Source of the DNA: an uncultured Rhodospirillaceae bacterium
GTDB taxonomy: Bacteria; Pseudomonadota; Alphaproteobacteria; JAEULC01
Direction of reading: 5' to 3'
NCBI GenBank assembly: GCA_964557415.1
Contig: CAZLBB010000007.1
Coordinates: 9,064-73,063, forward strand
DNA length: 64,000 nucleotides
Shown here: in pieces, positions 21,948-61,559 of the stretch
Layout: every line of letters begins with the position of its first letter
How positions within the stretch are numbered: the first letter of the stretch is position 1
Notes under the pieces: generated by a model
What the model was told of the DNA's origin: nothing
What the model saw: the letters and a program-made list of their open reading frames with translations, nothing else
Database searches by the model: none
Translations under genes and position numbers: made by a program

Positions 21948-22538
21948 CTATTTTGCCACGACCTGCTTCCACGCCGCTTCCCAGTCCTTCGGCAGCTTGT
22001 GTGCGATTCCCTGGTGGCAGTCGATGCAGGTCATTCCCTTCTCGCGCGCTTCGGCGTGCCTGCGCTGCGCCGGGCGCACCTGCTTTTCCTTGTCCATGAA
22101 CTCGAAAGCGTGGCAGTTGCGGCATTCGCGCGAGTCGGTCGACCTCATTGCCGTCCACACGGACTTGGCCAGCTCGGTACGGGCTGTCTCGAACTTCTCG
22201 GGCGTGCCCACGGTGCCGACGATCTTGTGGTACAGCTCGTTCGTGGCGCGAACCTTGCGCACCACCTTGTGGACCCATTCCTTCGGCACGTGACAGTCGG
22301 AGCAGACGGCGCGCACGCCGGTGCGATTGCTGAAATGCGGCGTGGTCTTTATTTCGGCGTACACGTTGTCGCGCATCTCGTGGCACGAGATGCAGAAGGC
22401 TTCGGTGTTCGACAGCTCCATCGCCCAGTTGAAGCCGCCCCAGAACACGATGCCGGCGGCGAACGACGCCAGCACGAATCCGGCCAGCAGCCATCCGCCG
22501 CGCGGTGCGCCCAGCCATTTGCAAATGCGCTTGAACAT
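21948..22538 (-). CDS. NapC/NirT/CymA-family membrane-anchored tetrahaem cytochrome c (quinol dehydrogenase)
   Basis: N-terminal TM helix plus four CxxCH motifs (CISCH, CSDCH, CRNCH, CIDCH) in the characteristic NapC/NirT spacing. Confidence 0.85.
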   Translation of the reverse strand: MFKRICKWLGAPRGGWLLAGFVLASFAAGIVFWGGFNWAMELSNTEAFCISCHEMRDNVYAEIKTTPHFSNRTGVRAVCSDCHVPKEWVHKVVRKVRATNELYHKIVGTVGTPEKFETARTELAKSVWTAMRSTDSRECRNCHAFEFMDKEKQVRPAQRRHAEAREKGMTCIDCHQGIAHKLPKDWEAAWKQVVAK

Positions 22539-22661
22539 GCTGCCGGTTCCTTTTCTGGGATGTTCGCCTGCCGGACCAGATCCCCGGCAATCGAATCATC
22601 GCGGCGATGTTGATGGCGCCCGGCCGAGTGTCTAATCGGCCGGGCGCCGGCGAGGGAGGGG

Positions 22662-23981
22662 CTAGTTGAGGGTCACCGCCTTGATAGTGGCGTCCGCGCC
22701 GATCCCGAGGCTCAACGGGAACGAGACGAAATGGTAGCGCGTGGTGACGTTGTCGTCGTGCACCGCGATGCCGATCGTGTACACGCCGCCAACCTTCATG
22801 ATCTTGTCGTCCGCCGGATTGCCGGTATCCAGCTTGCGCCGCCACAACAGCGTGTAGGCGCCGTCCTTCCACATTCCCTTCGCGTAGTCGTTGTCGGCGG
22901 CCGATCCCTTGGCGTCGGCGCGGCTGATCAGGCGGCCGGGAAGGATGTCGCCCTCCTTCCACCCCGCGTTCGGGTCGAAGGGCGCGGCGTTCTCCTCGCG
23001 CACGACCGCCGCCGGCTTGGCGGCGTTGCCGATGTCCTCGGCGCGCAACGCCTTGAAGCCCGTCTTGGCGGAATCGAACATGTATTTCGGCAGTTTGGTC
23101 TTGCCGTCGATGTTGGAAGCGAACGGATTGGCGCCGGCATCGAACAAACGGAATTCCAGCACGTAGCCGTCGTCGGCCATGCCGACGGGGTTGCTGCGCG
23201 CGGTCCGCCACTGCATGAGGTCGAGGAACTGGCCGGCGGCCTTCAGCTTGGCGATCTCCTCGGCCGATTTCGGCTTGTCCCAGCTCGCCTCCGGATCCGA
23301 GCGCGTGATGGCGAGATACTTGAGGACCTCGTCCTTCTTCATGCCGGCGTCGCCCAGGAAGGGATGCTTCTTGACGGCATCCTTGCCCGCCATCTTCGGC
23401 GCGTCGCGCATGCCGTTGTGGCAGGTCAGCCAGCAGCCCTGCTGGGCGAAGCGCTCGACCTTGCCGTCGTCGAGCATGATCGCGACGCGGTCCTCGTAGA
23501 GCGGTGGCTCGGCACCCGAGCGCACCTTCTCGTGAGAGCGATAGCTGCCGTACGACTTCCACTCCTTGCCGTCGAAGCGCACGTAGTCGTGCATGCGCCC
23601 CTCGCGGTTCATCTGGGATTTCCACTGCATGCGGAAATAGACGAACTCCTTGTCGTGCGCCGCCTGCACCGACAGCGGGAGCGTGCCGTTCTTGCCGGCG
23701 ATCGGCGTCGGCTCCAGCGGGCCGCCCTTCACCAGCTTGTTGCCGATGTCCGCCTCGTCGCCCTCGTGACAGGACAGACACGCCTTGCCTTGCGCGACCT
23801 GCTTGTCGCCCTTCTTGTGGTCGGGGCTCAGCAGCCAGTCATAGGTCGATTGTCCGGGGTAGAACAGCGTGATCGACTTGGCGGGGATCTTCGACCAGTC
23901 GATGGTCGCCGGATCGGCGGCCAGCGCGGGCCCACCCATCAGCGCAACGGCGCCCAAGAGAGCAGCCGTTTTGTTCCTCAT
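22662..23981 (-). CDS. Periplasmic dihaem c-type cytochrome of unassigned family (439 aa)
   Basis: Sec signal peptide (AVALMGGPALAADP). Exactly two CxxCH motifs (CLSCH near residue 68, CWLTCH near residue 193) and no other Cys. Sits 123 bp upstream of the NapC/NirT gene on the same strand. Confidence 0.7.
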   Translation of the reverse strand: MRNKTAALLGAVALMGGPALAADPATIDWSKIPAKSITLFYPGQSTYDWLLSPDHKKGDKQVAQGKACLSCHEGDEADIGNKLVKGGPLEPTPIAGKNGTLPLSVQAAHDKEFVYFRMQWKSQMNREGRMHDYVRFDGKEWKSYGSYRSHEKVRSGAEPPLYEDRVAIMLDDGKVERFAQQGCWLTCHNGMRDAPKMAGKDAVKKHPFLGDAGMKKDEVLKYLAITRSDPEASWDKPKSAEEIAKLKAAGQFLDLMQWRTARSNPVGMADDGYVLEFRLFDAGANPFASNIDGKTKLPKYMFDSAKTGFKALRAEDIGNAAKPAAVVREENAAPFDPNAGWKEGDILPGRLISRADAKGSAADNDYAKGMWKDGAYTLLWRRKLDTGNPADDKIMKVGGVYTIGIAVHDDNVTTRYHFVSFPLSLGIGADATIKAVTLN

Positions 23982-24627
23982 GGACCTCTCCTCTCAGTGC
24001 CAATGCCCGCGGCGCCGGCGCCATGCGATGTCGCCATTCGCCTTGCCGAGGGTCGAGGACGCCCGCACGGCCGAGAGCCGCTTCGGGTCGCGAACGAATT
24101 GATCGGTGCTCGAGCGAGAAGACTTGACGCGATGCCGAAGGCTGTCTCGCCGCGTTCGAGGAAATTGCGGTGCCGGGATGTTTGCTTGGATACCAGTAAC
24201 GGCAGCAAGTGCGATTGATCATGCCGCCGGACAGCCCCGTCTAGCCTCTGCGTCGGAGGTGGAGCTGTTCCAGTGAAGCCCGCAAACAGCCACATGTCTG
24301 CAACCGGTGGCCAAGCCCGGAAGGGCGCAAGGTTGCTTGCGTCACGCATCAAGCCTGCGAAGGGTGATCGTATCGCACTCGATCGCAGGCAGTTCCCGAG
24401 TTGGCTCCGTCCCTCGTCCGCTGGTTTTCACAAAAGTCGGGCTATGTTCGTTTGCTGGCGGGATTGCCGCATTGACATAGATCATGTCCAGCGGTCTTCG
24501 CGGCGCGATTTGGCTAGTTTCGACAGGGGACGCCGGTCGAGCGGTCTGTGCCAAGCGCGTCGCGGTGTGCTGTCATCGACGCGTTGTCCGCCTGGCGGAT
24601 CGTGCTTGGGCGATGGCGTCCTTCGGG

Positions 24628-25605
24628 CTAGATCTTGTCCCTCAATCGCTCGATCAGCGTGCGGTACAGCTCCTTGTCCGCGCCCGTCGCGGCGTCGAAG
24701 CGGTCGGTCAGCTCCTTCAGCGTCATGCCGATGTTGAGCGCGTCGCCGGGCGGGCGCGGCGAGGGCCTTGCGGTCTGTACGGTCTCGATGCCGACCTTGG
24801 GCAGGATGGCGTTGATGACGCGCTCGATCGTCTGGAACAGGAAGTCGGTGCTGTAGCCGGCCAGGAAGCCGAGCGCGGCGGCGCTGAGCTGGATCGTCTC
24901 GCCGCCCTCCGTCGTGATCTGGTTTACGAACAGCGTGATCGTGCCGCCCGCCACCGCGCCCAACAGGATGCGGTTCATGTATTCGGACTTGCGCCGCACG
25001 TCGAAGGTCCGCGCATGCAGATTGGTGTGCGCATTGCGCAGCAGGTAGACGCAGGCACCGAGACCGCCATACGAGAACGGCAGCAGCAGTTCGACAAGTT
25101 GCAGCCACGTGTTGATCCGATCGATCTCGCCATCCAGGATCGGCCCGTAGCGACGCTGCATCCAGCCGGCAAAGACGATGAACGCAGCGAAGCCGATGGT
25201 CGCCATGAACAGCCCGCGCGCGAAACGCTGCGCCGGCGCCAGGCCGTCGGAAAACCAGTCTGCGGGCGAGAACCAGCGGATCGTGATGCCGGCGGCGGCG
25301 GTCGCACGCAGCGTATCGGCGGTGACGGGATGCAGCAGTGCCGCCAGCTGATGATACGCCATCTGGAACTTGATCCAGTCCCCGGGCCCGTTCCTCAGCG
25401 CCTCGCCTGCCGGGGTCTTGTCGAGCGTGGCGGCCGTCGTCTTGATCGTCGTCATGATGTCCGAGGAAACCGTCAGGCCCTCGGCGGTCTTGAAACCGCT
25501 CTCGACGGCGTAGGTAAGCAGCTCGAGCGCGTCCTTCGCTTCCTTGCGATAGACACGCTCGGCTTCGCTTGGACTCGGCGCATCGGGCGGGAGCGGATCG
25601 CTCAT
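24628..25605 (-). CDS. Hypothetical membrane protein: an N-terminal soluble ~120 aa, 4 predicted TM helices, then a C-terminal soluble ~60 aa
   Basis: The start ATG at 25605 overlaps the stop of the upstream nuclease gene (ATGA) and is preceded by AAGGAGG (spacer ~5). The upstream part of the ORF-track entry 24628..26031 is Arg/Gly-rich read-through. Confidence 0.6.
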   Translation of the reverse strand: MSDPLPPDAPSPSEAERVYRKEAKDALELLTYAVESGFKTAEGLTVSSDIMTTIKTTAATLDKTPAGEALRNGPGDWIKFQMAYHQLAALLHPVTADTLRATAAAGITIRWFSPADWFSDGLAPAQRFARGLFMATIGFAAFIVFAGWMQRRYGPILDGEIDRINTWLQLVELLLPFSYGGLGACVYLLRNAHTNLHARTFDVRRKSEYMNRILLGAVAGGTITLFVNQITTEGGETIQLSAAALGFLAGYSTDFLFQTIERVINAILPKVGIETVQTARPSPRPPGDALNIGMTLKELTDRFDAATGADKELYRTLIERLRDKI

Positions 25606-26741
25606 AGTCCCTCCTTCGCGAACTTCTTGCAGCCCTGGTCGTAGTCGGCCGGCGCGACGGGCCAGGCCGCCGTCGCGACGCGCTTCTTCAGATTGGCGGT
25701 GTCGCCGCCGGCGTCGGTGAAGAAGCGCTGGCCCGTCAGATGCTCGATGCGCGCCACCGAGGCCAGCCAGGCCGACGGCCGGAACGGGCCCTTGCGGTAG
25801 CTCGGGTGGTCCTGCGGGTAGACGAAGGCGAGCGCGTCCCACGCGCCCGTTTCGTCCTTGCGCGCGACGATCTTGAACAGGGCGTCGGGGATGGCGACCT
25901 TGAGCGCCTTGCGTCCGGGCTCGCGCAGCCAATGCGTCGGCCGTCCTTGCAGGAAGACCGGCCCGCTGACGACCCAGATGCTGCCGTGCCGGTTCGCGAG
26001 CGCGCCGGTATAGCACTCGAGCTTGAGCCACGGCCCGCTGTTGAAGCGGCTGCGCTGCGGCACGGCGTTGCCCACGTTGTGCGTGAACTTGCCGGCGTCC
26101 GGCCCCAGCCGCTCGGCCAGGAACTTCTGCGCCATGTGGCCGCGGTCGTACCAGTTCGGATGCGCATCGCGGAAGGATTTCGAGAACTTGTAGCTGTCGT
26201 CGGTCGGCGCGATGTTGTTGCGCGCCAGGTCGGGGATCGTGTACCAGGCGCGCGGGCGCGGGCCGCCGCGCGGCTCGCGCGACTTGCGGTCGACGCGCTG
26301 GCTGACCCAGTGCGGCACGGCGAGCACGTCCGGCTTGCCGTCACCGTCGTCGTCGTCGCCCAGGTCGAAATTGACCGCGAAGGCCTGGAAGCAGACGAGC
26401 CGGTCGGTGACCGCGGCCAGGCCCGGATTGTGCTCGCCGCCCTGTTGGTCGGCGCATTCCACGATGCCGACCCGCCGCGCCTCGTCGTCGACCGGCTGCA
26501 TCTCGATGGCGCCGGCGACGACCGCGCAGAACAGCGCGACCGCGCCGATCACTGCCGCGGGCCTGACAAGGCGCGCCGCACGGCCGCTCCGTCGATCGGG
26601 CGGAGAAGCGCCAGGGAATGCCGTCACGCCTCGCTCCCCCAGTTCCCGCCGGCCGCGCCCGAGCCGAGGCGGCGGCACGACGTGATGCGGCCGCAGCTTA
26701 GCACCACACCTGCCGGAGGACACGGCCGAGTTGTGCTGCAA
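25602..26741 (-). CDS. Secreted/membrane-anchored DNA/RNA non-specific endonuclease, Serratia NucA/EndoG (His-Me finger) family
   Basis: Catalytic DRGH motif (NWYDRGHMAQ) and downstream Asn-containing region (FNSGPW). N-terminal hydrophobic signal/anchor (AAVIGAVALFCAVVAGAI) and an acidic linker (DLGDDDDGDG). The exact start is uncertain; 26741 is the most upstream ATG. Confidence 0.75.
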   Translation of the reverse strand: MQHNSAVSSGRCGAKLRPHHVVPPPRLGRGRRELGERGVTAFPGASPPDRRSGRAARLVRPAAVIGAVALFCAVVAGAIEMQPVDDEARRVGIVECADQQGGEHNPGLAAVTDRLVCFQAFAVNFDLGDDDDGDGKPDVLAVPHWVSQRVDRKSREPRGGPRPRAWYTIPDLARNNIAPTDDSYKFSKSFRDAHPNWYDRGHMAQKFLAERLGPDAGKFTHNVGNAVPQRSRFNSGPWLKLECYTGALANRHGSIWVVSGPVFLQGRPTHWLREPGRKALKVAIPDALFKIVARKDETGAWDALAFVYPQDHPSYRKGPFRPSAWLASVARIEHLTGQRFFTDAGGDTANLKKRVATAAWPVAPADYDQGCKKFAKEGL

Positions 26742-27029: not shown

Positions 27030-28169
27030 CTATCCGGCCGCGGCAGCCGCGGTTTCGAAGGGGATGGTGCCGGCGCCGCGCGCGGGTCCGGCGATCGCTT
27101 CCTGGCGCTTGAACGCGAGCGCGAAATGGGCGCCGCCGCCGGCGACGGATTCGTAGCGGACGCTGCCGCCGAGCTGCTGGGCAAGGGCCTGCACGATCTG
27201 CATGCCGAAGCCCGCGCCGGAGCGGTCGTCCGTCCCATCCTGGTCCAAAGGCGTCCCGACGCCGTTGTCGACGACGTCCAGCCGCACCTTGCCGCCCTCG
27301 GTCGCGACCGCGATCCGCACCCGGCCGGCGCGCTGGCTGGCGAAGGCGTGCTTCAGCGCGTTGGTGATCGCCTCGTTGGCGATCAGCGCAAGCGGCACCG
27401 ACTGGTCGATCGGCAGCGCCGTGTCGTCGGCCGTCACCTCGATCTCCACCGCGCCCGCGTGCGGGTCGGCCTGCCGCAGGTACTCGACCAGCTTGCGCAT
27501 GTAGTTGCCGGCATTGACGCTGACGATGTTGGTGCTGCCGTACAGCGCCTGGTGCACCAGACTCATCGCATGCACGCGCGCGATGCTGCGCTCGAGGGCG
27601 TCGCGCAGCTGCGCGTCCGCGAACCGGCGCTGCTGCAGCCGCAGCATCGAGGCGACGACCTGCAGGTTGTTCTTCACGCGGTGATGCACCTCCTGCAGCA
27701 GGGCGGTGAGCTGCTGGTTGGCGCGCTCGACCTCTTCCGTGCGCTCGGCCACGCGGCGCTCCAGCTCCTCGTTCATGCGCTGCAGGACCTCGCGGCTCGG
27801 CAGGGACAGGAGCCGCGGCAGGAGCGGCCAGACCAGGATGGCCGTGCCGATCGAGGCGATGCCCGTCGCCAGCTTGACGATCGCCTCCAGCCCGTAGATC
27901 GGATGCCAGAACGAGACGATGTTCAACAGATGCGCGGCGCCGCAGAGCAGGATGAAGGTGCCGAACAGGTAGAGAGGCCAGGTGAACAGCAGGCCGCGCC
28001 GCCGGCGCGCCAGCGTGACCAGGAAGACCGGGATGGTGAAGTAGGCCAGCGCGATGGTGGCGTCGGCGACGACATGGGTCCAGACCAGGTCCGGCCGCCA
28101 CAGCAGGCAGAAGCCGTGCGGCATGAGCTGGTCGGTGCTGAACAGCCACTGCGTGATGGAATCGATCAT
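27030..28169 (-). CDS. Sensor histidine kinase with an HWE/HisKA_2-type dimerisation domain and an N-terminal membrane sensor region
   Basis: About 5 TM helices, then EVHHRVKNNLQVVASMLRLQ (H-box of HisKA_2/HWE kinases) and an ATPase domain ending in a G-rich lid (GAGFGMQIV). Confidence 0.8.
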   Translation of the reverse strand: MIDSITQWLFSTDQLMPHGFCLLWRPDLVWTHVVADATIALAYFTIPVFLVTLARRRRGLLFTWPLYLFGTFILLCGAAHLLNIVSFWHPIYGLEAIVKLATGIASIGTAILVWPLLPRLLSLPSREVLQRMNEELERRVAERTEEVERANQQLTALLQEVHHRVKNNLQVVASMLRLQQRRFADAQLRDALERSIARVHAMSLVHQALYGSTNIVSVNAGNYMRKLVEYLRQADPHAGAVEIEVTADDTALPIDQSVPLALIANEAITNALKHAFASQRAGRVRIAVATEGGKVRLDVVDNGVGTPLDQDGTDDRSGAGFGMQIVQALAQQLGGSVRYESVAGGGAHFALAFKRQEAIAGPARGAGTIPFETAAAAAG

Positions 28170-28240
28170 CGCTGCCCCGCCGTGAGCATGTCGGTCGCAG
28201 GTGTTCGCCGCAGGCCTTCGGCAGCGACGCGAACGCGGCG

Positions 28241-28693
28241 TTATTCCGGGTCGCGGCAGGCGCGCTGGATGGCGCGCTTCAGCCCGTCGATCGAGATCGG
28301 CTTCGGCACCAGGGGCGCCCGGCCGAACTTGCCGATGCGCAGCAGCGTTTCGGGATCGGTATTGCCGGTCACGAACACGATGCGCGCGCCGTGGCGCTCG
28401 CGGATCTGGCGGGCCGCGTCGATCCCATCGCCGTCCGGCAACCGGATGTCCATCAGCGCCACATCGGGCGGCTGCTGGGCGGCCGATCGCAGGGCTTCGC
28501 TGACCGAGGCGACGGGCCCGATCACCGTGCCACCGAACTGCTCCACGATCGACGCGAGGTCGAGGGCGACCAGGCCTTCATCCTCCACCACCAGGACGCG
28601 CAGCTCGCGCCCGTCGGCGCGGCTGAGCCTGTCGCTAAGCTCGGCCTTCATCGTGGATCCGCCCTGGTCGACCGGCGACGCGGCTTGCGGCAT
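28241..28693 (-). CDS. Single-domain response regulator (receiver only)
   Basis: REC fold motifs (VLVVEDEGLVALDL ... DVALMDIRLPDGDG ... IVFVTG ... KPI). Lies immediately downstream of the kinase. Start at 28693, with GGGAG 5 nt upstream. Confidence 0.8.
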   Translation of the reverse strand: MPQAASPVDQGGSTMKAELSDRLSRADGRELRVLVVEDEGLVALDLASIVEQFGGTVIGPVASVSEALRSAAQQPPDVALMDIRLPDGDGIDAARQIRERHGARIVFVTGNTDPETLLRIGKFGRAPLVPKPISIDGLKRAIQRACRDPE

Positions 28694-32967: not shown

Positions 32968-34821
32968 TCAGTTGCCTGCCGCCGCCTTGCGCTGCGCCAG
33001 GGTCGCTTCCTTCTTCGGATCGACCCACCACGCGTCGAACTGCGCCCCCTGCTTTGGCGTCACCGCAGGCCGCCCGAACTTGTCCCAGTAGGCCAGCCGG
33101 TCGACGTTGGTGTGGAAATTGGGGATGACCCAGAAGCCCCATTGCAGCACGCGGTCGAGCGCGCGTGTGCGCGCCACCAGTGCCTGGCGGTCGGGCGCGG
33201 CGATCAGCTTCTCGATCAGCTCGTCGATCGCTTTGCTCTTGATGCCGACCGAGTTGCGGCTGCCCTTCTGGTCGGCGGCGGCGGTGCTCCAGAAGTCGCG
33301 CTGCTCGTTGCCCGGCGATTCCGACTGGCCCCAGACCTCGACCGTCATGTCGAAATCGAACTCGTCCGAACGGCGCTGGTATTGCGCCGTGTCGACCGTG
33401 CGCACCGACGCCTCGATGCCCAGCCGCTCCAGGTTTTTCACGAACGGCAGCACGATGCGCTCGAATTGCGGGTTGTTGAGCAGAATCTCGAAGCGCATCG
33501 GCTCCCCGGTCCTGTCGTTGACCAGCTTGCCGCCCTTGATCGACCAGCCCGCCTCCTTCAAGAGCTGCGCGCCCTTCATCAGATTGCCGCGGATGTTGCC
33601 CGACCCGTCGGTGCGCGGCGGGTTGTATTCCTGCGCGAACGCTTCGTCCGGGATCTGGCCGCGCAGCGGTTCCAGCAGCTTCAGCTCCTCCGGCCCGGGC
33701 AGGCCCTTGGCCTCGAGCTCGGAATTGCCGAAATAGCTGCGCGTGCGCGTATACTGCTCGTAGAACAGGGTCCTGTTCGACCATTCGAAATCGAAGGCGA
33801 AGCCGAGCGCCTCGCGCACCTTGCGGTCCTGAAAGATCGGGCGCCGCACGTTGAAGGCGAAGCCCTGCATGCCCTGCGTGCGGCTGTTCTTCAGCGCCTC
33901 CTTGACGATCACGCCGGCCTTGACCGCCGGCACGTCGTAGCCGGTGGCCCATTCCTTGGCCGAGTTCTCGACCCGGAAGTCGAACGCGCCGGCCTTGAAC
34001 GCCTCCAGCGCGACCGTGGCGTCGCGGTAGTAGTCGTAGCGGATCGCGTCGAAGTTCTCGCGCCCGATGTTCACCGCCAGGTCCTTGCCCCAGTAGTCGG
34101 GCACGCGGCGATAGGTGATCGCACGACCCGGATCGATGCTGTCTATCTTGTAGGCGGCGCTGCCGAGCGGCGGCTCGAGCGTCGTCTTCTCGAAGTCGCG
34201 CGTCTCCCAGTAATGCTTGGGCAGCACTGGCAGCTGGCCGAGGATCAGCGGCAATTCGTGGTTCTCGCCCGGCTTGAAGCCGAATTTCACCGTGCGCTCG
34301 CCCGTCTTCGCCACCTGGTCGACATGCTGGTAGTAGAGCCGGTAGAAGGGCGCGCCCTTCTCGCGCAGGATGTTGAAGGTGAAGATCACGTCGTCGACCG
34401 TGATCGGCTTGCCGTCGTGCCAGCGGGCGTTCGGCCGCAGCGTGAAGGCGACCCAGGACCGGTCGGCCGGCGTCTCGATCTTCTCCGCCAGCAGGCCGTA
34501 CTGGCTGAACGGCTCGTCGGCCGAGCCCGCCATCAGCGAATCGTAGATCTGCCCCAGGCCGGCAGCGGCGCGGCCCTTGATGACGAAGCCGTTCAGCGTG
34601 TCGAAGCCGCCGATCGCCGCCAGCTTGACCTCGCCGCCCTTGGGTGCGTTCGGGCTGACGTAGTCGAAGTGCTTGAAGTCGTCCTTGTATTTCGGCGTGC
34701 CGTGCATGGCGATGCCCAGCCCGTTGACCGGCTGATCGGCCAGCGCGCCCGCCGCGGGCGCGCCCGCGAGCAGCGCGGACGCAAGCAGGCGGAAGAGATG
34801 GGGCCGCATTCCCTGGCGCAT
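32968..34821 (-). CDS. ABC transporter substrate-binding protein, family 5 (oligopeptide/microcin-C YejA-like)
   Basis: 617 aa with a signal peptide and the SBP_bac_5 fold. No permease or ATPase genes are adjacent. Confidence 0.8.
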   Translation of the reverse strand: MRQGMRPHLFRLLASALLAGAPAAGALADQPVNGLGIAMHGTPKYKDDFKHFDYVSPNAPKGGEVKLAAIGGFDTLNGFVIKGRAAAGLGQIYDSLMAGSADEPFSQYGLLAEKIETPADRSWVAFTLRPNARWHDGKPITVDDVIFTFNILREKGAPFYRLYYQHVDQVAKTGERTVKFGFKPGENHELPLILGQLPVLPKHYWETRDFEKTTLEPPLGSAAYKIDSIDPGRAITYRRVPDYWGKDLAVNIGRENFDAIRYDYYRDATVALEAFKAGAFDFRVENSAKEWATGYDVPAVKAGVIVKEALKNSRTQGMQGFAFNVRRPIFQDRKVREALGFAFDFEWSNRTLFYEQYTRTRSYFGNSELEAKGLPGPEELKLLEPLRGQIPDEAFAQEYNPPRTDGSGNIRGNLMKGAQLLKEAGWSIKGGKLVNDRTGEPMRFEILLNNPQFERIVLPFVKNLERLGIEASVRTVDTAQYQRRSDEFDFDMTVEVWGQSESPGNEQRDFWSTAAADQKGSRNSVGIKSKAIDELIEKLIAAPDRQALVARTRALDRVLQWGFWVIPNFHTNVDRLAYWDKFGRPAVTPKQGAQFDAWWVDPKKEATLAQRKAAAGN

Positions 34822-42433: not shown

Positions 42434-42928
42434 ATGAAATGGATCACGCGCGAGCGGCCGAAGATCGATCGCATCGCTTGTCCCTGGCTGGTCGCGCGCT
42501 TCATCGACCGCGCGCCGGAATTCCTCTACGTGCCCGCGGGCGCGGTGATGCGCGAGGCAACGGCGCAGAGCGCCATTCCCTACGACGTACCCGAGGTCGA
42601 GCTCAGCCATGTCGGCGAGAGATGCAGCTTCGACGCGTTCCTGTCGAAATACGGTCTCGACGAGCCGGCGCTGCGTCAGCTCGCGACGATCGTGCGCGGC
42701 GCCGATACCGGGCGGCCCGATCTCACCGCGCAGTCGGCCGGGCTGCTCGCGGTTTCGCTCGGCCTCTCGCGAGTCTTCAGGGACGATCACCAGATGCTGG
42801 CGCACGGCATGGTGCTCTACGACGCGCTCTATGCCTGGTGCCGCGAGGCGCAGGGCGAGACGCATGGCTGGCCGCCGGCCGATTGGCCGAGAGCCGTCCT
42901 CGATGACGCGGAGCCGCCACGCGTATGA
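42434..42928 (+). CDS. ChrB C-terminal-domain-like protein (standalone)
   Basis: The translation ERPKIDRIACPWLVARFIDRAPEFLYV parallels the C-terminal domain of the chrB product. Its stop overlaps the chrA start (ATGA). Confidence 0.6.
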   Translation: MKWITRERPKIDRIACPWLVARFIDRAPEFLYVPAGAVMREATAQSAIPYDVPEVELSHVGERCSFDAFLSKYGLDEPALRQLATIVRGADTGRPDLTAQSAGLLAVSLGLSRVFRDDHQMLAHGMVLYDALYAWCREAQGETHGWPPADWPRAVLDDAEPPRV

Positions 42929-44289
42929 CGCATGCCGCCGCACCGGTCCCCTTTCGCGATGCGCTGCGCACCTGGGCCAAGATCGGGCTCCTGAGCTTCG
43001 GCGGGCCGGCGGGACAGATCGCCACCATGCACCGCATCCTGGTCGAGGAGAAGCGCTGGATCGGCGAAGCGCGGTTCCTGCACGCGCTCAACTACTGCAT
43101 GCTGCTGCCGGGGCCCGAGGCGACGCAACTCGCCGCCTATATCGGCTGGCTGCTGCACCGCACGCTCGGCGGCATCGTCGCCGGCGTGCTGTTCGTGCTG
43201 CCGGGCGCCTTGGTGATGGTGGCGTTGAGCGCGCTTTACGCCGGCTATCGCGATCTGTCCGCGGTCGACGCCGTGTTCTTCGGCATCAAGGCGGCGGTGC
43301 TGGCGGTGGTGGTCGAGGCTGTCCTCCGCATAGGCCGGCGCGCGCTCGGCAATCCCGCGCGCGTGGCGCTCGCGGCGCTGGCGTTCGTCGGCATCTTCCT
43401 GTTCGCCGTGCCGTTCCCGCTGATCGTGCTGGCGGCGGGGATGGCCGGCCTGGTCGGCGCGCGGGTCCGGCCGGACTGGTTCGCCAACGGCGTCGGACAT
43501 GGTTCCGCCAAGGGCAAGCCCGTGCTCGACGCGCTGATCGACGAGAGGCTGCTGACCCATGTCGATCCCACGCCGGGCCGCGCGCTCGGCGTGCTGCTGG
43601 CCTGGGGGGCCATCTGGGCCGCTCCGGTCGCGGTTGCGGGCCTCGTGCTCGGATCGAGCCACGTGCTGGTGGCCGAGGGCCTGTTCTTCTCCAAGGTCGC
43701 GGTGGTCACCTTCGGCGGCGCCTACGCGGTGCTCGCCTACGTCGCGCAGCAGGCGGTCGAGCACTATGCCTGGATCGGAGCCGGCGAGATGCTGGACGGT
43801 CTCGGCATGGCCGAGACCACGCCCGGGCCGCTGATCCTGGTGCTGACCTTCATCGGCTACTTGGCCGCCTACCGGCTCGGCGCGCCGCTCGATCCGGCTC
43901 TGGCCGGCTTGCTGGGAGCGGCCCTGACCACCTGGGTGACGTTCGTTCCCAGCTTCCTGTTCATCTTCCTCGGCGCGCCTTATGTCGAGCGGCTGCGCGG
44001 CAACCCGGCCGCGGCGGGGGCGCTGTCGGCGATCACGGCCGCCGTGGTCGGCGTGATCCTCAACCTCGCCGTCTGGTTCGCCCTGCACGTGGTGTTCCGC
44101 GACCACGTGCCCTGGCGCTTCGCCGGGATGCAGGTCGACCTCCCGGTCGCGTCCTCGCTCGACCTGCCGGCCCTGGTGCTCGCAGGCGGCGCGATGCTGG
44201 CCATGCTGCGTTTCAAGCTCGGCATGATCCCGGTCCTGGCCGGGGCGGCGGCACTCGGTCTCGGCTGGCGCTATGTCACAGGGACTTGA
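42925..44289 (+). CDS. chrA: Chromate ion transporter ChrA (long form, two CHR domains)
   Basis: 454 aa. The translation IGLLSFGGPAGQIATMHRILVEEKRWI ... GPEATQLAAYIGW, with the repeat VAVVTFGGAYAVLAYVAQQ ... TPGPLILVLTFIGY, gives the tandem CHR-family signature. Confidence 0.85.
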   Translation: MTHAAAPVPFRDALRTWAKIGLLSFGGPAGQIATMHRILVEEKRWIGEARFLHALNYCMLLPGPEATQLAAYIGWLLHRTLGGIVAGVLFVLPGALVMVALSALYAGYRDLSAVDAVFFGIKAAVLAVVVEAVLRIGRRALGNPARVALAALAFVGIFLFAVPFPLIVLAAGMAGLVGARVRPDWFANGVGHGSAKGKPVLDALIDERLLTHVDPTPGRALGVLLAWGAIWAAPVAVAGLVLGSSHVLVAEGLFFSKVAVVTFGGAYAVLAYVAQQAVEHYAWIGAGEMLDGLGMAETTPGPLILVLTFIGYLAAYRLGAPLDPALAGLLGAALTTWVTFVPSFLFIFLGAPYVERLRGNPAAAGALSAITAAVVGVILNLAVWFALHVVFRDHVPWRFAGMQVDLPVASSLDLPALVLAGGAMLAMLRFKLGMIPVLAGAAALGLGWRYVTGT

Positions 44290-60293: not shown

Positions 60294-61559
60294 TCAAGTG
60301 CCGGCTCGCGCCAGGGCGTCGATTGCGGCCGCGCCGGCGGCGGTCAGGATCACGACGAGCCAGGGCGGCCATTTCCACAACGCGAGGAGCGCGAACGCGG
60401 TGAGCGCCAGGGCGAAGTCGGCCGGCGCCTTGATCGCGCTGGTCCACACCGGATTGTAGAGCGCCGCGAGCAGCAGCCCGACTACGGCCGCGTTGACGCC
60501 CATCAGGGCCGAGCGTACCGGACGCACGCGGCGCAGATCGTCCCAGAACGGCAGCGCGCCGAGGGTCAAGAGGAAGGACGGCAGGAAGATCGCCGCCAGG
60601 CACAGGACCGCGCCCGCCCAGCCGTTGGGCGGCGGTGTCATCACGGTCCCGAGATAGCCCGCAAAGGTGAAAAGGGGACCGGGCACGGCCTGGGCGGCGC
60701 CGTAGCCGGCAAGGAACGTGTCGTTCGTGACCCAGCCCGGCTGCACGACCTCGGATTGCAGCAGCGGCAGCACCACGTGTCCGCCGCCGAACACGAGCGA
60801 GCCGGTGCGGTAGAAACTGTCGAGCAGCGCCAGCGACTGGCTCGGGAAGGCTGCCGCGAGAGCCGGCAGGCCGAGCAGCAGAGCGAAGAACAGGAACAGT
60901 GCCACCGCACCGGTCGTCCGCGAGACGCCGGCATGCATCGGCTCATGCGCTCCCTCGCGCGTGTCCTTGAGGAACAGCAGGCCGAAGAGCCCGCCGCCGG
61001 CGATCGCGCCGATCTGGCCGAGCGAGGTCGGCCAAAGCGAGAAGGCCCAGGCCGCCGCAACGGCGACGCTCGCGCGGGTCGCGTCGGGACAGAGGTTGCG
61101 GGCCATGCCCCACACCGCAAGGGCGACGACGGCGACCGCCACCACCTTCAAGCCGTGCAGGAGGCCCGCATCGAGCAAGTCGTGATAGGCGCCGACGCCA
61201 TAGGCGAACAGGACGAGCGCCAGCGCCGAGGGCAGCGTGAAGGCAAGCCACGAGGCGATGCCGCCCGGCAGCCCGCCCATCATGAGGCCGATGCCGATTC
61301 CGACCTTGCTGCTGGCGGCGCCAGGCGTGAACTGGCACAGCGCCACCAGGTCGGCGTAGCTTTGGTCGTCGAGCCACTTGCGGCGGTTGACGATCTCGTC
61401 GCGGAAATATCCCAGGTGCGCGATCGGCCCACCGAAGGAGGTCAGTCCAAGGCGCAGGAATACCAGGAAGATCTCGCCGATGGAGCGGTGCCGAGCGTGA
61501 CGCGCATGCGGTTGCGCCGTCGCGCCGACCTTGTGTGGGCGCTGATCCATCGTTGTCAC
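60294..61559 (-). CDS. chrA: Chromate ion transporter ChrA, second paralog
   Basis: 421 aa. The translation LRLGLTSFGGPIAHLGYFRDEIVNRRKWL ... LVFGGGHVVLPLL ... VPGPLFTFAGYLG gives the tandem CHR domains. Confidence 0.8.
   Translation of the reverse strand: MTTMDQRPHKVGATAQPHARHARHRSIGEIFLVFLRLGLTSFGGPIAHLGYFRDEIVNRRKWLDDQSYADLVALCQFTPGAASSKVGIGIGLMMGGLPGGIASWLAFTLPSALALVLFAYGVGAYHDLLDAGLLHGLKVVAVAVVALAVWGMARNLCPDATRASVAVAAAWAFSLWPTSLGQIGAIAGGGLFGLLFLKDTREGAHEPMHAGVSRTTGAVALFLFFALLLGLPALAAAFPSQSLALLDSFYRTGSLVFGGGHVVLPLLQSEVVQPGWVTNDTFLAGYGAAQAVPGPLFTFAGYLGTVMTPPPNGWAGAVLCLAAIFLPSFLLTLGALPFWDDLRRVRPVRSALMGVNAAVVGLLLAALYNPVWTSAIKAPADFALALTAFALLALWKWPPWLVVILTAAGAAAIDALARAGT

Follow-up and report, generated by a model that had tools for sequence, protein, structure and literature searches.

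Two genes lie in tandem on the reverse strand of the window, by which we mean the whole 64-kb stretch of DNA analysed here, and each is preceded by a Shine-Dalgarno-like sequence. The first (22662..23981, (-)) encodes a periplasmic c-type cytochrome of 439 aa with two haems and an EB_dh fold, a long-form relative of NirB and NapO/PcrO. The second (21948..22538, (-)) encodes a 196-aa tetrahaem cytochrome of the NapC/NirT family (PF03264), a putative membrane quinol dehydrogenase. The reading frames and the spacing are exactly those of the original prediction, which placed a NapC/NirT-type gene 123 bp downstream of the gene for the 439-aa protein. The 123-bp intercistronic region (22539..22661, (-)) contains a perfect 13-bp GC-rich stem-loop just past the first stop codon (arms 22615-22627 and 22636-22648, (-); fold z-score -3.8), followed by an AAGGA ribosome-binding site before the next ATG. 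Stem-loops of other sequence are present at the matching position in L001, L002, L004 and L005. No sigma-70-like promoter was found between the two genes, neither an FNR/Crp-type box nor a sigma-70 promoter was found 5' of the pair, and an Rfam search of the window returned no matches. Co-transcription of the two genes is plausible. The scanned ORFs of the window include no conduit genes and no reductase of the Nap, Nir, Tor, Nrf or Dms type, in keeping with the earlier statement that no cognate reductase is adjacent.

Electrons enter many anaerobic respiratory chains through NapC/NirT-type quinol dehydrogenases, whose soluble partners are, to our knowledge, poorly catalogued. The 196-aa protein had been described as a NapC/NirT/CymA-type anchor, a description borne out by its match to PF03264 (E 1.5e-71), its four CxxCH motifs and a single N-terminal transmembrane helix, placed by hydropathy scan at residues 14-32 (22443..22499, (-)). 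The four haem sites, read from the sequence, span 22014..22394 (-) and comprise CISCH (22380-22394), CSDCH (22290-22304), CRNCH (22110-22124) and CIDCH (22014-22028), all on the reverse strand. The protein scores below the cut-offs of three narrower models, namely TIGR02161 napC_nirT (263.2 vs 310.6 bits), the NapC equivalog NF007906 (242.5 vs 349 bits) and the TorC equivalog TIGR02162 (232.8 vs 478.2 bits).

The 439-aa protein starts with a Sec-type signal peptide (residues 1-21; 23919..23981, (-)), read from the sequence with cleavage between MRNKTAALLGAVALMGGPALA and ADP; a twin-arginine motif is absent from the N-terminus. This N-terminus varies among homologues, and the mature part is conserved. 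Haem-c site 1 is a canonical CLSCH (C68, C71 and H72; 23766..23780, (-)), and haem-c site 2 is an atypical CxxxCH with the sequence CWLTCH (C183, C187 and H188; 23418..23435, (-)). Two CxxCH motifs near residues 68 and 193, with no further cysteines, had been proposed; the motif at 68 and the absence of other cysteines hold, as the protein has four in total, every one within a haem-type motif, but the second site is a CxxxCH and lies at 183. The pair CXXCH and CWXXCH is the published signature of PcrO and NirB, in which CWXXCH was called atypical (PMC3884062), and the motifs at 68 and 183 fit this signature. All four cysteines and both histidines are invariant in 37/37 close homologues, and the same set is invariant in 39/39 haem-c family representatives, down to ~31% identity. 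The C[W/F/Y]xxCH form of site 2 is likewise conserved across the haem-c family. Almost every full-length long or short form has both motifs, as do all of the listed NapC/NirT fusions, and haem-c-free relatives lack the N-terminal haem-1 segment.

Conservation also points to candidates for the sixth ligand of each haem. H55 (23817..23819, (-)), the candidate for haem 1, does not vary among haem-c forms, whether long, short or fused, and disappears along with the haem-1 segment in the haem-c-free relatives. The candidate for haem 2 is H417, in a C-terminal HDD...RYH strand that also contains H408 (22731..22760, (-)). H417 is conserved in 38/39 haem-c members and H408 in 33/39, and both are present in 8/8 haem-c-free relatives. 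Only H55, H72, H188 and H417 are universal among the ligand candidates of haem-c members; the Met and Lys candidates M130, M169 and K393 are not conserved across the haem-c family. In EbdC, the haem b is bound non-covalently, with Met/Lys ligation. Because R415 aligns with EbdC R197 in the profile-PDB alignment, H417 can be placed near the EbdC ligand strand, close to the presumed position of the haem-b lysine. Both haems are thus probably six-coordinate, with histidine ligands H72/H55 and H188/H417. Two six-coordinate haems would, in turn, favour a redox carrier or adaptor over a catalyst.

The family assignment of the 439-aa protein is firm. It matches EB_dh (PF09459) with 179 bits against a cut-off of 33.3 (E 2.1e-52), so that the test against EB_dh/DOMON-like profiles suggested in the original prediction is positive. 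A single match spans residues 27-419 and profile positions 2-235 of 236, and the predicted model, of moderate confidence (pLDDT 70) and built without cofactors, is a single EbdC-like beta-sandwich; the two beta-rich domains proposed earlier are therefore replaced by one. PDB sequence searches with the single protein or a close-family profile gave nothing useful, whereas a broad family profile reached EbdC and NxrC. CCP/MauG, NapB and TsdA-type families gave no Pfam match at E values up to 0.1; these identities are rejected, as anticipated from the missing hallmark motifs. The protein is a member of the EbdC-like dihaem c-cytochrome family, and the combination of CxxCH with C[W/F/Y]xxCH marks out a large family, with Pseudomonas stutzeri NirB and Azospira suillum NapO/PcrO among its members. 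We know of no solved structure and no curated NCBIfam model for the dihaem EB_dh family.

Within this family, the 439-aa protein is one of the long forms, a separate and strongly conserved subfamily that carries 98 additional residues in two segments, and the window locus is an ordinary member of that subfamily. Insertion 1 (residues 131-151; 23529..23591, (-)) and insertion 2 (residues 285-361; 22899..23129, (-)) each align to a gap in 80% or more of the short and fused forms. Insertion 2 is also present in haem-c-free relatives. Long forms keep ~60-70% identity across proteobacterial classes, a conservation tighter than expected for a simple shuttle. Long forms of Photobacterium minamisatsumaniensis and P. 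makurazakiensis are 47% identical to the 439-aa protein.

Gene neighbourhoods show that the pairing is conserved across Proteobacteria. A NapC/NirT gene lies immediately 3' of the long-form gene in nine genome loci and in 38/61 informative metagenome loci, and 22/61 of the latter lack an adjacent NapC/NirT gene. Neither a set of 17 loci nor the 26 loci that lack a neighbouring NapC gene yielded a third conserved neighbour, and reductase or conduit genes were not found beside most long-form loci. The long-form subfamily usually occurs as a stand-alone pair. ORFs 3' of the long-form gene at L008 were set aside as probably spurious, because they have no transmembrane segments and no Pfam matches. 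NirT-EB_dh fusion proteins occur naturally (P0250, P0137 and P0193), and the partnership itself is confirmed by fusions that adjoin nirS, in Parasedimentitalea and on an Azospirillum brasilense plasmid; an unfused nirT-nirB pair was found inside a full nir cluster. Fusion of NirT and NirB-type domains in some bacteria has also been published (PMC13086519).

Taken together, these results sustain the earlier view of a quinol-linked periplasmic redox module. The dihaem protein had, however, been called unassigned and the module uncharacterised, and this claim of novelty is largely refuted at the family level because of the confident match to a characterised family. NirB and NapO/PcrO are each partnered with a NapC/NirT quinol dehydrogenase (PMC3884062; PMC5845722); with these partnered relatives already described, the module type is known, and the long, stand-alone subfamily is an uncharacterised variant of it.

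We consider it probable that the pair forms a self-contained cassette for electron transfer from quinol to the periplasm, of the NirT-NirB, NapC-NapO and PcrQ-PcrO kind, with the 439-aa protein as the carrier. In this scheme, the 196-aa protein would be held in the inner membrane by its one helix, oxidise quinol at the periplasmic face and pass electrons along its four c-haems, as its family membership suggests. The 439-aa protein would be exported by Sec and receive two covalently bound haems, haem 1 at the canonical CxxCH in the N-terminal add-on segment and haem 2 at CWLTCH, where it probably occupies the pocket that houses haem b in EbdC-type subunits. Judging from the conserved residues, it would act as a redox carrier or adaptor and not as a catalyst, an electron relay that links the membrane cytochrome with a redox partner in the periplasm or outer membrane, presumably encoded elsewhere in the genome. 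Gene neighbourhoods in other systems speak for a carrier role. In 3/3 loci of one short-form clade, the dihaem gene is flanked by a NapC-like gene on one side and MtoA-like/MtrB-PioB genes on the other, and long forms adjoin cymA-mtoA-mtoB-like operons in L007 and L010; at L089, tblastn matches to MtoA and MtrB accompany a long form with a NapC-type gene directly 3' of it.

The original prediction took the dihaem protein for the likely terminal partner. Several features of the long forms could indeed suggest a terminal enzyme, that is, a quinol-driven periplasmic reductase or detoxifying oxidoreductase acting on a small molecule, with the insertions shaping a substrate site at one haem. No reductase is adjacent to the long-form gene in ~100 long-form loci, conservation is unusually high and the insertions, insertion 2 among them, hold many invariant residues. 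Furthermore, the membrane partner can be exchanged while the long form stays. A few loci carry another membrane cytochrome in place of NapC/NirT. In Photobacterium this is a cytochrome b561-type protein (PF01292); in L053 and L062 a class-I cytochrome with four haems and a membrane anchor is joined by a monohaem protein with four transmembrane segments, and L085 has related ORFs of shorter length. In several lineages, the genes directly 5' of the long form encode two-component sensors or regulators, including a dCache_3 kinase and a sigma-54 regulator in L009, L011 and L068. Nevertheless, neighbouring sensor kinases are no proof of an enzyme product, the protein matches no catalytic haem family and its characterised relatives are carriers. 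The universal residues give each haem a sixth-ligand candidate and leave no obvious open site, and the proximity of some long forms to porin-cytochrome conduits fits a shuttle. A terminal enzyme is therefore an unlikely, if coherent, reading. It is similarly doubtful that the long form is the substrate-facing end of a widespread, self-contained and sensor-regulated two-gene module for respiration or detoxification, with interchangeable membrane cytochromes and the insertions as the site for a substrate or partner. The interchangeable cytochromes in such a module would be of the NapC/NirT, cytochrome b561 and anchored class-I multihaem types.

Electrons could also flow in the opposite direction, from a periplasmic or outer-membrane donor to the dihaem protein and through NapC/NirT into the quinone pool. 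Such a donor could be a periplasmic dehydrogenase or a conduit of the MtoAB type that oxidises Fe(II). Dihaem EB_dh genes do occur inside clusters of NapC-like, MtoA-like and MtrB-PioB genes. Relatives are present in a Zetaproteobacteria MAG (L011), and NapC/NirT proteins of Fe(II) oxidisers are discussed in this context in the literature (PMC9600427). However, conduit and dehydrogenase genes are missing from the window and from most long-form loci, sequence does not reveal which way electrons flow, and the one NapC/NirT protein of an iron oxidiser studied so far reportedly showed quinol oxidation activity. Reverse flow is thus quite improbable for the pair in the window. Finally, the common EB_dh fold and profile of EbdC and NxrC could suggest that the 439-aa protein is a haem-b gamma subunit of a type II DMSO-reductase-family molybdoenzyme (Ebd, Nxr, Ser, Clr or Ddh), but this identity is extremely unlikely and effectively refuted by a TIGR03477 score of 12.1 bits against a cut-off of 169.85 and by the lack of adjacent alpha/beta subunit genes in the window or the examined related loci, and the protein has two c-type haem motifs and a NapC/NirT gene as its partner instead.

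The dihaem EB_dh cytochrome represented by NirB and NapO/PcrO is far more widespread than the few papers on it suggest. Bacteria combine it with nitrite, nitrate and perchlorate reductases as well as with porin-cytochrome conduits of the outer membrane, and its stand-alone long form is abundant too. Naming the acceptor of the long form would close a gap in how the respiratory chains of many uncultured Proteobacteria are annotated, and a structure would reveal how a haem-b pocket is converted to haem c through a rare CxxxCH site.

Among known systems, CymA and its shuttles (PdsA in Aeromonas/Vibrio; MtoD with ImoA/CymA in Sideroxydans) offer a functional analogy only. In these systems, a small soluble cytochrome links a NapC/NirT-type inner-membrane cytochrome to a terminal system, but PdsA and MtoD, the latter a monohaem class-I cytochrome, are unrelated to the 439-aa protein and have no EB_dh fold. 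PdsA, a periplasmic dihaem shuttle, was rejected as a homologue because of its predicted mass of 20.8 kDa. EbdC and NxrC (PDB 2ivf_C and 7b04_C) share the EB_dh fold with the 439-aa protein. However, these haem-b gamma subunits have one non-covalent haem b and no c-type motifs, whereas the 439-aa protein has two, and they lack its N-terminal haem-1 segment and the long-form insertions. They are subunits of type II DMSO-reductase-family molybdoenzymes, in contrast to the pairing with NapC/NirT in the window.

The NirT-NirB system of P. (Stutzerimonas) stutzeri (nirSTBM, where NirB is the dihaem 'cytochrome c552') has both protein families side by side, like the window, and its NirB has the same CxxCH and CWxxCH haem signature as the 439-aa protein. 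It differs in gene order, with nirT preceding nirB and the order reversed in the window, and in adjoining nirS, which the window lacks. The NirB-type proteins that this analysis places in nir clusters are short forms of ~320-340 aa, ~31-39% identical to the 439-aa protein and without its residues 131-151 and 285-361. In Azospira suillum PS, the EbdC-like dihaem c-cytochromes of the NapC-NapO and PcrQ-PcrO pairs also adjoin NapC/NirT genes, although these pairs lie inside nap and perchlorate-reduction clusters and the pair in the window stands alone; the likeness of NapO/PcrO to the 439-aa protein follows the published description. The experiments that speak to a carrier role were all performed on relatives of the 439-aa protein. 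In A. suillum, deletion of napO abolishes growth on nitrate, and a strain without both pcrO and napO no longer grows anaerobically on nitrate and perchlorate (PMC5845722). NapC/PcrQ and NapO/PcrO cross-complement, and these genetics support an electron path from quinol through NapC/PcrQ and NapO/PcrO to the terminal reductase (PMC5845722).

The gene pair occupies two minus-strand ORFs with 123 bp between them, as the original prediction had placed them: the dihaem protein (439 aa) is encoded at 22662-23981 and the NapC/NirT protein (196 aa) at 21948-22538. GC3 is high in both ORFs, as real genes here should show (the sequence is 65-74% GC). By its sequence features, the 196-aa protein is clearly a NapC/NirT-family cytochrome, with a Pfam match to PF03264 (E 1.5e-71), four CxxCH motifs and a single N-terminal transmembrane helix (residues 14-32). 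Because it falls below the NCBIfam cut-offs for the NapC equivalog, the TorC equivalog and the napC_nirT subfamily model, it is regarded as a family member and not as a named orthologue. Co-transcription of the pair is plausible: a Shine-Dalgarno-like sequence precedes each gene, and no sigma-70-like promoter was found between the two. A perfect 13-bp GC-rich stem-loop without a T-run lies at 22615-22648 on the minus-strand transcript, just behind the dihaem stop codon, and four relatives (loci L001, L002, L004 and L005) have a stem-loop of other sequence at the same position. This element may adjust how much of each transcript is present relative to the other; a role as intercistronic stabiliser or attenuator controlling the product ratio is possible.

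The dihaem protein starts with a Sec-type signal peptide and has four cysteines in all. Two CxxCH motifs had been expected; one is present (haem site 1, C68-LSC-H72), and the other site is a CxxxCH motif (C183-WLT-C187-H188) located at residue 183 instead of about 193. EB_dh, one of the profiles proposed for a check, gives a single match (PF09459, E 2.1e-52) over residues 27-419 and profile positions 2-235 of 236. Since this one match covers nearly the whole profile, the two beta-rich domains originally envisaged reduce to one domain, and the extra length represents insertions inside it. An AlphaFold2 model made from 37 homologues has a pLDDT of 70 and a pTM of 0.76; CBM9 and DOMON-type cytochrome domains are among the solved structures that resemble it at lower scores. 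A sequence search detected no solved structure of the dihaem EB_dh family, and NCBIfam holds no model for it.

More than 2,800 homologues of the 439-aa protein exist. The top 120 of them share 67-100% identity with it at a length of about 440 aa, and nearly all are either unnamed or called "ethylbenzene dehydrogenase-related protein". In public data its closest relatives belong to a MAG labelled "Alphaproteobacteria bacterium" (97% protein identity) and to one from Rhodospirillales (89%), so the window probably derives from an uncultured alphaproteobacterium. When 50%-identity representatives were searched exhaustively, 880 relatives were found at E <=0.001, and among representatives of at least 300 aa the order CxxCH then C[W/F/Y]xxCH is kept down to about 31-35% identity. 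The family has four architectures: long forms of about 440 aa, including the window's protein; short forms of 310-345 aa; fusions with an N-terminal NapC/NirT domain; and relatives without haem-c motifs. The fusion proteins P0250 (599 aa) and P0193 (554 aa) have one EB_dh domain, whereas P0137 (924 aa) has two tandem EB_dh repeats; Pfam identifies the fusion in P0250 and P0137, and BLAST and motif evidence in P0193. The window's protein exceeds the short and fused forms by two segments that together make up 98 aa (residues 131-151 and 285-361). Both segments also occur in the haem-c-free relatives, which lack the N-terminal segment bearing haem site 1. At two loci of such relatives (L024 2336-9923, and L025 with the same layout), a 475-aa protein without cysteines is followed by a DUF2231 membrane protein, and opposite lies an operon for a PepSY_TM-flavodoxin-NAD-binding reductase, ApbE, DUF2271 and PepSY proteins and a two-component system.

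Several potential axial ligands are conserved. Among 39 haem-c members, H55, H72 and H188 are invariant, H417 is found in 38 and H408 in 33; M130, M169 and K393 are not universal. The broad family profile matches EbdC (E 3e-8) and NxrC (E 6.5e-8), and its alignment sets EbdC R197 opposite R415 and EbdC G112 opposite G250. The haem ligands of EbdC are Met and Lys. From this conservation and alignment we infer that haem 2 (CWLTCH) would sit in the classical EB_dh haem pocket, with H188 and H417 standing in for the EbdC Met and Lys, and that haem 1 (H72, partner H55) is probably an N-terminal addition. Two six-coordinate haems of this predicted kind would be more in keeping with a carrier than with a catalyst.

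Gene linkage is widespread among long forms. A NapC/NirT-type gene lies immediately downstream in nine genome loci (Alpha-, Gamma- and Zetaproteobacteria) in a Burkholderiales MAG, and in an 86%-identical relative, where the CBS-domain gene found downstream in the window is present too. Among 61 metagenome loci with enough downstream sequence, 37 have NapC/NirT immediately downstream (gaps of 57-220 nt), or 38 of 61 once Pfam had found a divergent copy at L068; one more has it 455 nt away, and 22 have none within the flank. No third gene family is conserved beside the pair. At three loci (L022 8475-10326, L053 103-3929 and L062 5001-9097), the membrane redox proteins beside the long form are not homologous to NapC/NirT. 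The first, from Photobacterium (47% identity), has an adjacent PF01292 cytochrome b561-type gene overlapping the EB_dh start. Downstream in the other two are a membrane-anchored four-haem class-I cytochrome and a 4-TM monohaem protein, to which shorter ORFs at L085 are related. Two-component systems lie upstream in several lineages; a dCache_3 sensor histidine kinase and a sigma-54-dependent response regulator are encoded directly upstream at Gamma- and Zetaproteobacterial and metagenome loci (L009 437-3684; L011 295-3458; L068 1522-4810).

The cassette is reused in different respiratory contexts. A 341-aa short form is encoded within a cluster comprising nirS and nirT-nirB-nirE-nirC-nirF-nirDLGH-nirJ-nirN, and NirT-EB_dh fusions lie directly 3' of nirS in Parasedimentitalea denitrificans and on plasmid p4 of Azospirillum brasilense Sp7; P0250 and the A. 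brasilense protein are among the fusions in this position. NapC/NirT-EB_dh fusions are located at L023 9001-10800 and L027 8269-9891. A second short-form clade occurs, in three of three loci (L019 7396-12300; L020 7274-12439; L021 7364-12375), in conserved four-gene clusters encoding a NapC/NirT-like protein, the EB_dh dihaem protein, an MtoA/MtrA-like multihaem cytochrome and an MtrB/PioB porin. Two Betaproteobacteria MAGs have a long-form gene divergent from a cymA-like/mtoA-like/mtrB-like operon, with a GAF protein gene between them and, at one locus (L007), also a Crp/FNR-type regulator. At L089, where a NapC-type gene directly follows the long form, tblastn matches MtoA and MtrB.

It had been predicted that no reductase adjoins the pair, and the scanned ORFs of the window indeed encode no respiratory reductase or conduit. 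In the mechanism that we consider rather probable, the NapC/NirT protein would oxidise quinol on the periplasmic side of the inner membrane, and the Sec-exported dihaem protein would take the electrons and relay them to a partner encoded elsewhere. The present analysis establishes family membership, fold, conserved motifs, gene linkage, the fusions and the reuse of the cassette; that NapO and PcrO are carriers comes from published work, and the number and ligation of haems in the window's protein, the flow direction and a remote acceptor are predictions. The long form could instead be the enzyme at which a two-gene module ends; its stand-alone context, swapped membrane partners, adjacent sensors and tight conservation speak for this, but it is unlikely given the pattern of ligands and the fact that its relatives are carriers. 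Electron flow towards the quinone pool, as in iron oxidisers, is more doubtful still, and a molybdoenzyme gamma subunit is effectively excluded.

Other features of the window include a histidine kinase (27030-28693, minus strand) with ETR1_N (ethylene-receptor-like N-terminal domain, E 7e-34) and HisKA_2/HWE-type kinase domains, adjoined by a single-domain response regulator, and two genes for the chromate transporter ChrA (PF02417) within the same 64 kb (42925-44289, plus; 60294-61559, minus). The 88-nt tRNA-Arg(GCG) called by ARAGORN at 33017-33104 (minus) is probably a false positive; it lies wholly within an SBP_bac_5 solute-binding protein ORF (32968-34821), and Rfam finds no tRNA there. 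The stretch of about 1.6 kb that precedes the dihaem gene (23982-25600) contains no confidently assigned gene; a 467-aa ORF (24628-26031, minus) has no Pfam match, does not pass the GC3 filter when taken whole, and overlaps an Endonuclease_NS gene (25602-26741).

The relay from quinol through the NapC/NirT protein to the dihaem protein has precedents. The haem motifs are kept in NirB of the P. stutzeri nirSTBM cluster, and the gene for a dihaem protein adjoins the NapC-like Dsui_0144 (Melnyk et al., PMC3884062). Wang et al. 2018 (PMC5845722) gave these two proteins the names PcrO and PcrQ and found the paralogous NapC-NapO pair. Deletion of napO abolished growth on nitrate, a pcrO napO double deletion abolished anaerobic growth on nitrate and perchlorate, and the NapC/NapO and PcrQ/PcrO paralogues cross-complement (PMC5845722). 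NapO and PcrO are carriers in the model of that study, in which electrons pass from quinol via NapC/PcrQ and NapO/PcrO to NapAB or PcrABC. NirT and NirB are fused in some bacteria (2026 Stutzerimonas paper, PMC13086519), and the short form in L019-L021 holds the place that the small shuttles MtoD or PdsA have in described systems. The features that the original prediction described are real except for the motif detail and the number of domains. It was right in seeing a quinol-linked periplasmic module and mistaken, at the family level, in calling it unassigned and uncharacterised. For the long-form subfamily, which is abundant and strongly conserved, no characterised member, structure or acceptor was found. 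Novelty is modest: the window carries a long-form, stand-alone variant of the same cassette type as NirT-NirB, NapC-NapO and PcrQ-PcrO, and if the Azospira proteins are themselves long forms, its locus would simply be a further example of a described type.
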